A DNA stretch of 64,000 nt. Origin: an uncultured Gemmatimonadales bacterium. GTDB taxonomy: Bacteria; Gemmatimonadota; Gemmatimonadetes; Gemmatimonadales; Gemmatimonadaceae. The notes under the pieces are model-generated. The model did no database searches, had not been told where the DNA came from, and saw only the letters and a program-made list of their open reading frames with translations. Below are positions 40,921-44,577 of this stretch, in pieces. The stretch spans positions 1,152,001-1,216,000 of the forward strand of contig CAWBZV010000005.1 of NCBI GenBank assembly GCA_963793305.1. The letters run 5' to 3'. Within the stretch, counting starts at the first letter, position 1; every line of letters starts with the position of its first letter. A program made the position numbers and the translations under genes.

Positions 40921-40993
40921 GCGGGAATAGCTCAGTTGGTAGAGCACAACCTTGCCAAGGTTGGGGTCGCGGGTTCGAGTCCCGTTTCCCGCT
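40921..40993 (+). tRNA. tRNA-Gly(GCC), CCA not encoded
   Basis: GCGGGAATAGCTCAGTTGGTAGAGCACAACCTTGCCAAGGTTGGGGTCGCGGGTTCGAGTCCCGTTTCCCGCT folds as a cloverleaf. Confidence 0.97.
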
Positions 40994-41062
40994 CTGACAC
41001 GGCAACGACATACGGGTCCGGGGGCGGTTGCCTTCCGGGCCCGCTGTACCAAGTGGGGGACC

Positions 41063-41296
41063 ATGGCTTCCTTAATCGAGTCCAACCCAGCGGTCATGAT
41101 GGGCAAACCGGTGGTGGCGGGTACCCGCATCACGGTTGAGCTGATCCTCGACAAACTCGCCGCCGGCGAGTCGGTCGAGCAGATACTCGCAGCCCATCCG
41201 CGCTTGACACGCGAAGGCATCACTTCCGCCTTGGCTTTCGCTGCTGAGGCGCTACGAGGCGACGTGATCTACCCGCTGCCAAATGCGGCGGCGTGA
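41063..41296 (+). CDS. DUF433 family antitoxin
   Basis: NPAVMMGKPVVAGTRITVELIL..LAAG. Confidence 0.9.
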   Translation: MASLIESNPAVMMGKPVVAGTRITVELILDKLAAGESVEQILAAHPRLTREGITSALAFAAEALRGDVIYPLPNAAA

Positions 41297-41646
41297 AGTT
41301 CCTATGTGACGAGAACGTCGATCAACAGATAGTTGCCGCGCTTCGGCAGGCTGGGCACTCGGTGACGTACATAGCTGAGCTCTCGCCCAGCGTCGACGAC
41401 GAGCGTGTGTTGGCGGAAGCAAACCGCGACGCGGCGCTACTCGTCACAGGTGATCGCGATTTTGGCGCTCTCGTTTTCAACCAGGGTAAGGTTTCAGCCG
41501 GTGTACTCTTGATTCGCCTCGCGGGTCTTGCCCCGGCAACGCGCGCCGAGATCGTTGTGAACGCCGTGCGCGATCATGGAGCCGAGATGACTGGCGTCTT
41601 CACGGTTATTTCGCCAGGTATGATTCGTTATCGTAGGACACCGTAA
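41293..41646 (+). CDS. DUF5615 PIN-like toxin
   Basis: MKFLCDENV, LVTGDRDFG, GVLLIRL; overlaps DUF433 stop. Confidence 0.88.
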   Translation: MKFLCDENVDQQIVAALRQAGHSVTYIAELSPSVDDERVLAEANRDAALLVTGDRDFGALVFNQGKVSAGVLLIRLAGLAPATRAEIVVNAVRDHGAEMTGVFTVISPGMIRYRRTP

Positions 41647-41662
41647 CGAATTACCGTTGGCC

Positions 41663-41725
41663 CAACCTTGCCAAGGTTGGGGTCGCGGGTTCGAGTCCCG
41701 TTTCCCGCTCTTGATTTGCAACAAC
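41663..41725 (+). repeat. tRNA-Gly 3'-half copy (att-like) plus TGATTTGCAACAAC motif
   Basis: Identical to tRNA from CAACCTTGCC to CCCGCTCT (41663-41711); motif 41712-41725. Confidence 0.93.
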
Positions 41726-43474
41726 TTGTGCGTCTCGCTCACGAGAGTCGCGGTAGGCAGGATGCGCTCCGCGTCGATCGGCTGACCGCGGTAATGGTAA
41801 CGCGCGACACCGTACGCCATTTGCTTGAAAGCCGCTGACCGGTCGACCAGCGGAAGAATGTCGACATCGCCCGACCGTTGCGTGGGATGCGCATTGCGGA
41901 TCACGAATGACAAGGCGGGTTTCGCGGCGAAGTCCTTGCCGTCGAACGAGACGAGGCTGTCGATCTTCACATCGGGGATTGTTGTGGACACGAGCGATTG
42001 CAATGTCGCGGTGCGTTCGGCTGTGTCCTGGGTCGGGCTCATCAGCGCGCGTAACCAGAGCTCGAGTGCGCCGCTGGTTGTCACCTCGACTCGGCCCGAA
42101 AACGTGCCGTCGCTAGCTAATTCACCGGTGAGACTGACGACGGATCGATTGGAGTCCGTTGGATCCGGCGGCGTTGTAACGTGCTCGATGTCGCCGGCCG
42201 GATGGACAATCAGCGCGAATTTTCCGGCATCGGTGTAAGGGAGGGTTCCAAATCGGGAAAGCTCCGACGTCGGATCGACATACTGATACCCCGTGGGCTG
42301 CTTGACAGCAACAATCTCGTGGTCGAAAGCCTGGATCGTCGGGAGCGTCGAATCCGGTTGGTTCGTCGCGCTGATCAGGACTGGGAATGCCTGCAGTCCG
42401 ATCAATCCCAGCGCATCGATCAAGAGCGTCGCCTTATCCTTGCAGTCGCCGAACCCCGTCGCGAGCACAGTGTCGGGAAAACGAGGTTGAAATCCGCCGA
42501 GGCCCAACGCGATCTGGACATAGCGGATGTCTTGGGCCACCCACCGGTGTACCGCGCGGACCGAATCAATGAGTGTCGTGGCGTGGGCGACGACGCGTTG
42601 CACCGTGTCCCGGAGCCTGGCGTCTGGTCGGAGGCGGGATGCGGCCAGGCCCGCGACCCAATGTCCGAACGTCAGACCACGTCCCGGGCGCGGTCACGTC
42701 GATACCGACGGCGGCATCGGTGGAATCGACCGGTGGCGCGAACAGCTCTTGCCTGTCCCACAGTACCTGTTGCTTCGTCCATTGATACACGCGCCGGAGT
42801 CCGATCACCGTATCGCGCCGCGCGAAGTCGAGGTGATGCTCGACCATGCGGAGCGACAGATTTTTCGGAGTGTCAATCACGAGCCGTGCTCGCCGTACCG
42901 ACGTTTCTGACCCCAGCCGCCACCGGAGGTAGAAATCGCCGGGTCGATACGGCTTCCAGTTCTCGACAGTCCAACTCGCATCGACCAACGTCCCGGGTGC
43001 GACGCCGCTCAACGACAGCCGGATGACTTTGCGGTGAGCATACACCGGGTCGATCGTTGACGCTTCGACATCGGATTCCTGCATCTGCGATGGCTTCTCG
43101 CTGATGATCGTTCCGTCCGGTTTCAGCACGCGCATCCAATGGATCGTCACGTGCTCATGATCTCGATCGTATTCGAGTGACTGCTCCTGGAGACCTGGCA
43201 CCCCTGTCTGGCGCAGCACCTGGATGACTTGATGCAAGGTTCTGGTGTTGCGCCCATTGGCTTCGACGGTGATCACTGCATTGTCGAGGAGTAGGATCGA
43301 GGCAAGGCCCCGGTATCGCGCGCTGTCGACCGCAAGTCGATAGATGGTGTCGCTACGGATCGATGGAATGCCGCGCGCGGTGATATGCGGCGCCTGGGCT
43401 TGGGCGGGCGCCTCGGCCAGGATCGCGAGCCCGATGAGAAGAAGGAGCCAAAACGATCCAGCGCGCCGGTGCAT
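41726..43474 (-). pseudogene. DUF3857 + transglutaminase-like exported protein; frameshift near 42667, 3' end runs into the att-like repeat
   Basis: Signal peptide, DUF3857-like region, IRYVQIALGLGG, GDCKDKATL, FDHEI, YVDPT catalytic triad. Confidence 0.8.
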
Positions 43475-43543
43475 TACCGATACCAGATTGAAGGTGCTCT
43501 TACGATACAGTCGGGGCTGCTCTAGGTCGAGGGAATCCTAGCG

Positions 43544-43600
43544 GCCAAGGTTGGGGTCGCGGGTTCGAGCCCCGTTTCCCGCTCTCTGATTTGCAACAAC
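43544..43600 (+). repeat. Second tRNA-Gly 3'-half copy plus TGATTTGCAACAAC motif
   Basis: Match starts at the GCC anticodon (43544) and runs to 43585 with one T>C; motif 43587-43600. Confidence 0.93.
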
Positions 43601-43601
43601 G

Positions 43602-44183
43602 TCAGCGTCGGAGCCGCTTGGTTGCAACGGCCGTGCGTTTCGCTGCGGTCTCGTCGTTGGCGCCGGCAAGCAGCGCATCCCAGTCGTCGGGAGGGTTGCC
43701 GGCGTTCAACATCCGGGCGAAGACGGCGTACGCGTCCGTGCGCTTGCCGTAGATGCGGAGCGTTGATTCGTCGTTGACCCAGCCGTAGACGATGATGCGA
43801 GCGTCGGCACGAAAGCGGTAAAACAGTCGAAAACGACCGCCGCCGAACTTGGCACGGAACCAATGCTGGCGGTCGCCGCCGAGCGTGTCGCGCTGCCGGA
43901 ACTCCTTGCTCGCGGGGTCGCGAGGAATGACGTCGAGGATCAGCTTCGTGATGGCGGCGAGCGTCTTGGCGTTGGCGCTGCCTGGTTCGTTCGGATTACG
44001 CGGCGGTTCCCTCTCGATGGCATCGAGGAGCGACTCGAGTTGGTCGAGGAAACACGGGTGAACGAAGAGAATCCACCCGTGGGCTTCGCCAAGCGCAGCG
44101 CCGGCTGCCGCCGCATGTCGACGAGGCGCGGCGCGTGTCGTGCCGGCGGAGCGGGGCTTTCTTCGGCCGCGATGCCTTGCCAC
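43602..44183 (-). CDS. YhaV family toxin
   Basis: HPCFLDQL, IPRDP..FRQ..TLG, WFRAKF, RLFYRF, WVNDESTLR, DAYAVF, PPDDW. Confidence 0.9.
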   Translation of the reverse strand: MARHRGRRKPRSAGTTRAAPRRHAAAAGAALGEAHGWILFVHPCFLDQLESLLDAIEREPPRNPNEPGSANAKTLAAITKLILDVIPRDPASKEFRQRDTLGGDRQHWFRAKFGGGRFRLFYRFRADARIIVYGWVNDESTLRIYGKRTDAYAVFARMLNAGNPPDDWDALLAGANDETAAKRTAVATKRLRR

Positions 44184-44189
44184 AGCGAC

Positions 44190-44510
44190 TTAGAGCGCGA
44201 CGGGTCCAGTGATCGGCGCGTCGAGGTCGACCTCGGTCTTCGCCGTGGCGTTGCGCAGGCGAGTGACAAGCGACGGCGAGAGATGCTCGAGGCGCTCAGG
44301 GTGCGCCCTGATGTCGCGAGCGAGCAGGCCGAGGAACCCGGCGAGCGCGGGATCTTGGGTCTCCTCCGCGCGCGCTTTGATGATCAATGCACGATTGCCT
44401 CTGATCACGTACGCGACCTGGTCGCCGGGCGCGAGGTCAAGCGCCTTCCGGACGCCGCTCGGCACGGTGGTCTGGAATTTTGAAGTAATTTTGCTCATCA
44501 AAGTGGCCAT
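44190..44510 (-). CDS. PrlF/SohA family antitoxin
   Basis: SKITSKFQTTVPSGVRKAL, DPALAGFLGLLARDI, VDLDAPI. Confidence 0.88.
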   Translation of the reverse strand: MATLMSKITSKFQTTVPSGVRKALDLAPGDQVAYVIRGNRALIIKARAEETQDPALAGFLGLLARDIRAHPERLEHLSPSLVTRLRNATAKTEVDLDAPITGPVAL

Positions 44511-44535
44511 GGGATCCTCGCGTTGTATACCAAAA

Positions 44536-44577
44536 GGTAATGCGCTTGCATTGTTTACGCAATGCGTTTGCATTACC
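44536..44577. promoter_or_regulatory. Double palindromic operator upstream of prlF
   Basis: AATGCGCTTGCATT (44539) and AATGCGTTTGCATT (44561) inside GGTAATGC...GCATTACC. Confidence 0.7.

Follow-up and report, generated by a model that had tools for sequence, protein, structure and literature searches.

Organization of the tRNA-Gly locus

We analysed a 64,000-nt stretch (the window) of the 5.7-Mb, 26-contig genome of an uncultured soil bacterium of the Gemmatimonadales (G000), whose protein homologues bear names that indicate Gemmatimonadaceae. In the window, three short units lie in tandem behind a tRNA-Gly(GCC) gene. Two partial copies of this tRNA, repeats 1 and 2, are the only copies of its 3′ part in the genome and close units of 668 bp (unit 1) and 1,833 bp (unit 2); unit 3 has no right tRNA repeat and ends at a distal anchor (Table 1). 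The array is probably what erosion has left of at least three integrase-bearing elements, inserted one after another at the anticodon loop of the tRNA and then reduced by deletions.

Unit 1 is flanked on both sides by a complete anticodon arm; in repeat 2, the first two of the seven anticodon-loop bases are missing. The 14-mer of the shared motif has exactly two exact copies genome-wide, each behind one of the repeats. The segment directly behind the intact tRNA presumably acts as the left arm of unit 1; no arm-like tandem repeats were seen to the left of repeat 1 or repeat 2. All seven matches to the tyrosine integrase family PF00589 in the genome are located outside the window, and a tblastn search of the window for remnants with eight integrases gave nothing at E < 0.05, although other families could be missed by these eight queries. 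The genome, Pfam and tblastn searches confirmed the inventory of a preliminary description made from the sequence alone (the tRNA, its two 3′-half copies, the 14-mer, three cargo blocks and no integrase).

Table 1 Features of the tRNA-Gly(GCC) array (positions in the window).
Feature	Position	Strand	Remarks
Intact tRNA-Gly(GCC), integration target	40921..40994	+	Sole tRNA in the window
Predicted left arm of unit 1	40995..41063	+	Degenerate box like that of integration host factor (IHF); GC-rich hairpin 41013-41043; very degenerate tandem arm-like repeats 41045-41063
DUF433 protein, putative antitoxin (unit 1)	41063..41296	+	Pfam
DUF5615 PIN-like protein, putative toxin (unit 1)	41293..41646	+	Pfam; stop 16 nt ahead of repeat 1
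Repeat 1, tRNA positions 27-74	41663..41710	+	48/48 identical; anticodon arm complete
Shared motif copy 1 (IHF-like box)	41712..41726	+	14-mer 41712-41725; deletion junction 41726/41727 immediately after
DUF3857-transglutaminase gene (unit 2)	41727..43474	-	3′-truncated, ~80 codons lost; 1-nt frameshift at 42668
Repeat 2, tRNA positions 34-74	43544..43584	+	40/41 identical
Shared motif copy 2 (more degenerate IHF-like box)	43587..43600	+	14-mer
YhaV toxin (unit 3)	43602..44183	-	Pfam; C-terminus intact as in closest homologues
PrlF antitoxin (unit 3)	44190..44510	-	Pfam
Distal anchor, ahead of DoxX gene	44653..44700	+	Common to G001 and G003; end of unit 3
Orphan tandem 7-mer pair	48577..48595	-	Same 7-mers as in the arm-like repeats of the G003 and G210 tRNA-Gly elements

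Cargo of the three units

A Pfam search confirmed all cargo families (DUF433, DUF5615, DUF3857, Transglut_core, YhaV and PrlF), which make up a toxin–antitoxin (TA) pair in unit 1, a transglutaminase gene in unit 2 and a second TA pair in unit 3. The stop codon of YhaV was found at 43602-43604, 1 nt past motif copy 2, as described before; the idea that YhaV had been cut down so as to abut the motif was rejected, since close homologues have the same end.

The transglutaminase gene carries two defects that the preliminary description did not mention. It is split by a 1-nt insertion at 42668, which is not present in sequencing runs X1 and X2, and it has no stop codon of its own because the gene is cut at 41727, the frame reading on through the motif and the tRNA repeat. 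Its product is 89% identical to a 666-aa homologue (P0002, encoded on a 10-kb contig), the match ending at residue 586.

Strain contigs across the array

Some of the region is contained in 20 sequencing runs, two of which contain half or more; runs X3 and X4 cover it in pieces only. The strain in run X1 is ~99% identical to the window, and X1 and X3 belong to one study. A 727-bp contig of X1 joins the interior of the tRNA to repeat 1 by way of unit 1, and contigs of X1 and X3 link unit 2 to YhaV across repeat 2. Because short-read contigs of a strain differing by ~1% cross its tRNA/repeat junctions, the array is not a misassembly. The 1-nt frameshift and a junction (41726/41727) bridged by no contig could be taken as marks of an assembly artefact, but given these crossings, albeit from one study, an artefactual origin of the repeats is extremely improbable, and misassembly, which the preliminary description had named as a reason to abandon its account, largely falls away.

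Run X1 has 1,159 letters between 41717 and 41727, versus nine in the window (41718-41726), and run X2 likewise departs from the window at 41727. Past that position the letters of X2 keep the frame of P0002, with 8 of 10 residues identical in a hand translation. By comparison with these contigs, unit 2 of the window appears to be a deletion derivative that has lost ~1.15 kb, ~250 bases of it being the tail of the gene.

No excision, no skip joint across a unit and no reordering was seen in the contigs of four runs, contigs being prone to drop rare variants, and unit order was identical wherever junctions were crossed. Past repeat 1, the X1 contig matches the window for only the first 7 bases, and exact identity of the 14-mer may therefore be strain-specific. 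Run X1 also has a further, 2,754-bp contig that starts at a tRNA-Gly end with a variant box and hairpin not present in this genome. A second transglutaminase on that contig was dropped from consideration, as joints of that depth match paralogues on contigs C7 and C3, and raised contig depth of unit 1 in X1 and X2 was not used as evidence, since depth sums organisms.

The tRNA-Gly site in the genus

The genus set comprised five other genomes, with the tRNA assembled in four; G004 is 67% complete. In 5/5 genus genomes with the tRNA assembled, the first cargo behind tRNA-Gly is a TA pair, a TA remnant or a NYN nuclease: an NYN-domain gene follows the tRNA directly in G001, an AbrB–PIN pair in G002, a Phd–PIN pair in G003 and, in G005, unit 1 in a decayed state. 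That unit keeps its left arm and an internally deleted DUF433 gene, which are followed by a few codons resembling the end of DUF5615, by tRNA positions 24–37 (a half core) and then by unrelated genes. It is the only cargo shared with the five other genomes; units 2 and 3 were not found at this site in four of them, and no 3′ tRNA repeat was found within the 15–40 kb read downstream.

The sequences of G000, G001 and G003 come together again at 44653, and that of G005 does so at the DoxX gene, the distance from the tRNA to the distal anchor or DoxX gene being 3.7 kb in G000, 0.95 kb in G001, 4.5 kb in G003 and ~9 kb in G005. The site is a variable slot of 1–9 kb in the genus, in line with the earlier expectation that cassette content differs between strains or relatives. 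A G005 assembly is broken 1 nt past the tRNA (141-nt overlap), and the same base is the first of a G001 contig; strains are apparently heterogeneous at the base just past tRNA-Gly.

Behind the tRNA, G001, G003 and G005 share the box and the hairpin, whose sequence varies while its pairing is kept. Tandem 7-mer arm-like repeats are present there in G003, as in a genome of another genus (G210), and in degenerate form in G005. The orphan pair of the same 7-mers in the window is the only exact pair in the genome, with ~0.01 expected from the 171 single copies, the motif having been picked post hoc; it is possibly a further element remnant, or else a regulator site of the next operon.

Some further features were seen around this site. 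A strong inverted repeat lies upstream of the lone NYN gene in G001 (L001:18818-18860) and is possibly an RNA partner or a terminator. In the window, the 3′ part of the DoxX gene is duplicated (45094-45526 and 52964-53292), and the copies flank a 7.8-kb block of a PBP, a phosphoesterase and an ABC exporter, which is absent from G001; the phosphoesterase has an 89% paralogue at C5:577773-580136. Another AbrB/PIN TA pair with three unannotated open reading frames, also absent from G001, occupies 53324-55575.

tRNA-bounded units elsewhere in the genome

Many tRNAs of the genome carry 3′ repeats, most of which start at positions 27–34. Among 24 closed tRNA-repeat units, four have a full integrase, two a remnant and 18 none detected with the eight queries. 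TA or defence genes are frequent in the units (BrnT, AbiEii, CAP12-type TIR and DUF4143). Right arms of 56–138 bp recur among units of the Ile/Pro, Pro, Ala and Gln arrays, whereas no right arm is common to the two Gly units, nor does either have one in common with these arrays.

The tRNA-Pro(GGG) array (C5:610000-629578, L044) is a clear decay series within one genome. It opens with an integrative and mobilizable element (IME) of integrase, HTH, relaxase and NikA genes, whose integrase gene ends ~10 nt from the tRNA. Two decayed relatives come next, a 3.4-kb unit that has no integrase and then an open third unit. The latter corresponds to the neighbouring IME minus ~3.1 kb and keeps the last 53 aa of the integrase at 79% identity.

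Other arrays were noted in passing. A tRNA-Ile(GAT) array (C2:464597-481873, L041) has five units in which Ile and Pro 3′ repeats alternate, and it carries, among other genes, a BrnT pair and two TIR genes. Its Pro-type right arms are 82–89% identical to those of the C5 tRNA-Pro array, one unit of which contains an Ile-type arm; this mixing suggests composite elements moved between two tRNA targets. Two 5′ 41-nt copies of tRNA-Ser(CGA), with similar downstream arms, lie 5.4 kb apart at C14:225588 and 231031 (L057), the gene not being on the contig, and represent a rarer, 5′-fragment type of array. Single integrase-less units of 1.4–2.7 kb (C3:917029-919457, C3:100581-103013, C10:51174-53986 and C5:1544433-1545944) were observed at tRNA-Asn, -Cys, -Arg and -Leu, with AbiEii, DUF4143 ATPases or nucleotidyltransferase-like genes as cargo.

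The wider family, other phyla and environmental contigs

Among 400 family genomes, G005 alone had the tRNA-Gly end followed by a strict box. At the orthologous tRNA, G210 has a satellite-like island of 8.4 kb that encodes Prim-Pol and terminase; it is bounded by a tRNA repeat that starts at position 31, and each of its ends has tandem 7-mer repeats. Just outside it lies a 48-aa integrase tail, which resembles (42% over 48 aa) a short integrase family located at tRNA-Met, -Leu and -Arg of G000; members of that family are candidates for the cognate integrase of the tRNA-Gly site. At least three copies of the tRNA-Gly 3′ half were present in 8/400 family genomes; leaving aside the unpublished G283, 20 of the 22 copies in the other seven were examined, and all 20 were whole tRNA genes or cut by contig ends. 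The combination of tRNA 3′ half and motif proposed as a search target in the preliminary description occurs twice in this genome but had no exact match in metagenome contigs, and the 3′ half had no match in viral contigs.

A scan of a genome collection for tRNA-Gly plus box returned seven stretches representing six distinct loci in five genomes of Nitrospirota and Cloacimonadales. An integrase or integrase tail lies directly behind the box in 3/6 of these loci, and one genome has a small two-gene pair with an HTH protein there. The Cloacimonadales locus L081:7020-8797 (OY759316.1) holds a 1.7-kb unit of AbiEi/AbiEii only between tRNA-Gly and its repeat, which starts at position 44, with near-identical trailers behind both tRNA ends.

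The shared motif as an IHF-like box

The consensus WATCAANNNNTTR is described for IHF sites of lambda attP (PMC9452768, where it is given). Motif copy 1 matches it with two mismatches. We counted boxes with ≤2 mismatches within 35 nt of tRNA ends in this genome, excluding seven ARAGORN calls judged false and counting a tRNA-Met at C4:17138, which has a perfect box, with the non-target tRNAs. The box was present at 8/40 tRNA ends associated with attachment sites (att) versus 1/40 other tRNAs (p = 0.03), against a background of 2.3% of random windows. The single HU/IHF gene of the genome scores best against IHF models, though below the cut-off. The motif is a predicted IHF binding site and would be best read as a generic left-arm feature rather than the hallmark of a new cassette class.

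Origin of the array

The likeliest course of events is accretion followed by erosion. An incoming element would recombine in the anticodon loop and restore the tRNA, and each insertion would move the older element and the older 3′ half away from the tRNA, so that every tRNA end would come to abut the left arm of the next element, which opens with an IHF-like box. Deletions would start beside the left arm, where intact elements hold the integrase gene, and would remove the integrase and mobility genes, with small cargo staying behind, here twice a TA pair. TA pairs would outlast other cargo in the array because losing them is costly, as is established for TA systems.

Several observations argue for erosion. 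Unit 2 has apparently lost ~1.15 kb, 20/24 closed tRNA-repeat units of the genome are without a full integrase, and the box is commoner at att-associated tRNA ends and precedes an integrase or its tail in 3/6 loci of other phyla. G210 has a larger island at the same tRNA, and G003 keeps the same arm-like repeats behind its tRNA; the Gly units have no common right arm, repeat 2 is short of two loop bases and unit 3 is without a right repeat. Unit 1 has decayed in a relative, and the same path of decay is seen at other tRNAs of the genome. Strand exchange by lambda-type integrases follows a homology rule, and the missing loop bases of repeat 2 would be expected to impair excision centred on the loop.

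The preliminary description had favoured intact minimal cassettes with a common terminus, mobilized in trans and shuffled as in integrons, over the plainer alternative of eroded remnants. In a developed form of that proposal, tRNA-Gly(GCC) is an exchange slot of the genus, comparable to an integron, into which minimal cassettes, mainly TA modules, are moved in trans by the integrase of a visiting element. Sub-kilobase units, each combining an arm with the IHF box, one TA pair and a core from the anticodon arm, would be excised and re-inserted, in other phyla too, as a tRNA-based analogue of integron or pdif cassettes. The integrase-less TA or nuclease cargo standing first in every assembled genus genome and the two complete anticodon arms around unit 1 fit this proposal, as do the 2,754-bp X1 contig with its variant box and the AbiEi/AbiEii-only unit in Cloacimonadales; the assembly break in G005 and the contig start in G001 would fit strain differences just past the tRNA. 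Against it stand the truncation of unit 2, the incomplete repeat 2, the lack of a common right arm and of arm-like repeats left of repeats 1 and 2, the constant order with no skip joint in the contigs of four runs, and the failure to find units 2 and 3 at the site in four other genus genomes; equally short units elsewhere in the genome are accounted for by remnants. We consider such an exchange slot unlikely, and likewise give only a small chance to modules of the unit-1 type still moving in trans; if unit 1 were excisable in trans, few known site-specific cassettes would be smaller, and TA modules would have a route of exchange. With unit 2 apparently a deletion derivative, no shared right arm, a motif that looks generic, and neither reordering nor excision junctions seen, the minimal-cassette account is not supported and the eroded-remnant alternative is the better supported of the two.

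Stacking could also have proceeded with no integrase at all, if homologous recombination in or upstream of the tRNA brought in DNA of related strains, which was then joined illegitimately inside the resident tRNA, each unit then being a donor allele of tRNA trailer plus cargo. The box and hairpin behind the tRNA in four genus genomes could accordingly be a native trailer, repeats 1 and 2 begin at tRNA positions 27 and 34, respectively, and have no arm in common, and no integrase was found at the locus within the genus. All junctions nevertheless fall in the anticodon arm (27 and 34 here, the end of the half core at 37 in G005, 31 in G210), as do most repeat starts at other tRNAs, and this arm is a known integrase sub-site (PMC4383910); arm-like repeats are moreover still present in G003 and G210. 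An integrase-free origin is distinctly improbable on these grounds, and the earlier view that the repeats are scars left where tyrosine integrases inserted elements at the anticodon loop is supported.

A number of results weigh against accretion and erosion as the source of the array. No integrase-bearing parent of units 1, 2 or 3 was found; the eight tblastn queries detected no integrase remnant inside the units and no integrase at the tRNA-Gly locus of five genus genomes, and the G210 island contains none. In both G000 and G005 unit 1 is equally short, and it may therefore have arrived small. A displaced tRNA-Gly 3′ half was found in 1/400 family genomes (G210), with a search pattern that misses fragments with G at one position, repeat 2 included, and in short-read assemblies that break at repeats. 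The longer unit 2 in X1 has ~900 further bases for which the gene tail does not account. The junction 41726/41727 is bridged by no contig, and the loss in unit 2 is therefore either strain-specific or an assembly error; in either case the 1.8-kb unit 2 is not the general form of this unit. As for the motif, copy 2 and the tRNA copy each fit the consensus with four mismatches, the enrichment of IHF boxes at att-associated tRNAs is modest, and the loci in other phyla were chosen with part of the IHF consensus.

Comparison with known systems

In this Gemmatimonadaceae lineage most tRNA-bounded islets (20/24 closed units in one genome) are without a full integrase, and TA modules tend to be what stays beside the tRNA. 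Islander-type tRNA islands have their own integrase and a length of at least 2 kb (PMC4383910), and the closed Gly units, at 668 and 1,833 bp and without integrase, differ in both; such islets would be discarded by island finders requiring an integrase and 2 kb. We found no paper on such islands in Gemmatimonadota in the open-access literature, and none with this exact architecture in the literature on an IHF/tRNA link and on TA-only tRNA islets.

Integron cassette arrays are defined by IntI, attI and attC. The Gly array resembles them in its short tandem units with TA pairs among them, but there is no PF00589 match near the locus that could stand for IntI, the boundaries are tRNA halves, and no shuffling was seen.

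The closest parallels, as far as the cited accounts describe them, are accretion systems. Cis-mobilizable elements (CIMEs) have lost integration and transfer genes and are stacked at one att site by later insertions, as in the accretion model of ICESt1/ICESt3 (PMC5704250). Integrase and transfer genes are likewise absent from the Gly units. In CIMEs both attL and attR are kept, whereas the right ends of the Gly units look damaged or lost: unit 1 has both cores and no recognizable right arm, unit 2 an incomplete loop and unit 3 no right repeat. Further differences are that no active element is adjacent and that the Gly units are <3 kb. At the ssrA gene of Dehalococcoides, many tandem units are bounded by 3′-end repeats, and 15 without integration modules are read as possible CIMEs (PMC3146451); these islands differ in their tmRNA target, serine recombinase, larger units and known cognate module. 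In the tycheposon islands of Prochlorococcus, newer elements push older ones outward and leave partial tRNAs and integrase fragments (bioRxiv 10.1101/2020.12.28.424599), and active elements are known there, whereas none was found for this tRNA-Gly. The additive flexible genomic islands of Alteromonas occupy a tRNA hotspot with cassettes that vary by strain, some with a partial tRNA repeat (PMC4898812, PMC3698932). The Gly site shares the constant locus, the number and nature of cassettes varying among relatives and the partial tRNA repeat downstream; near-identical cassettes recur across Alteromonas species, whereas no such sharing was found at the Gly site, where tRNA-proximal cargo is TA-dominated. 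The array is likely a CIME-like additive island formed by tandem accretion and then deletion; it would belong to an established type of hotspot for gene gain and not to a new cassette system. Its residual novelty lies in the finding that 5/5 genus genomes with the tRNA assembled have a TA or nuclease module behind it.

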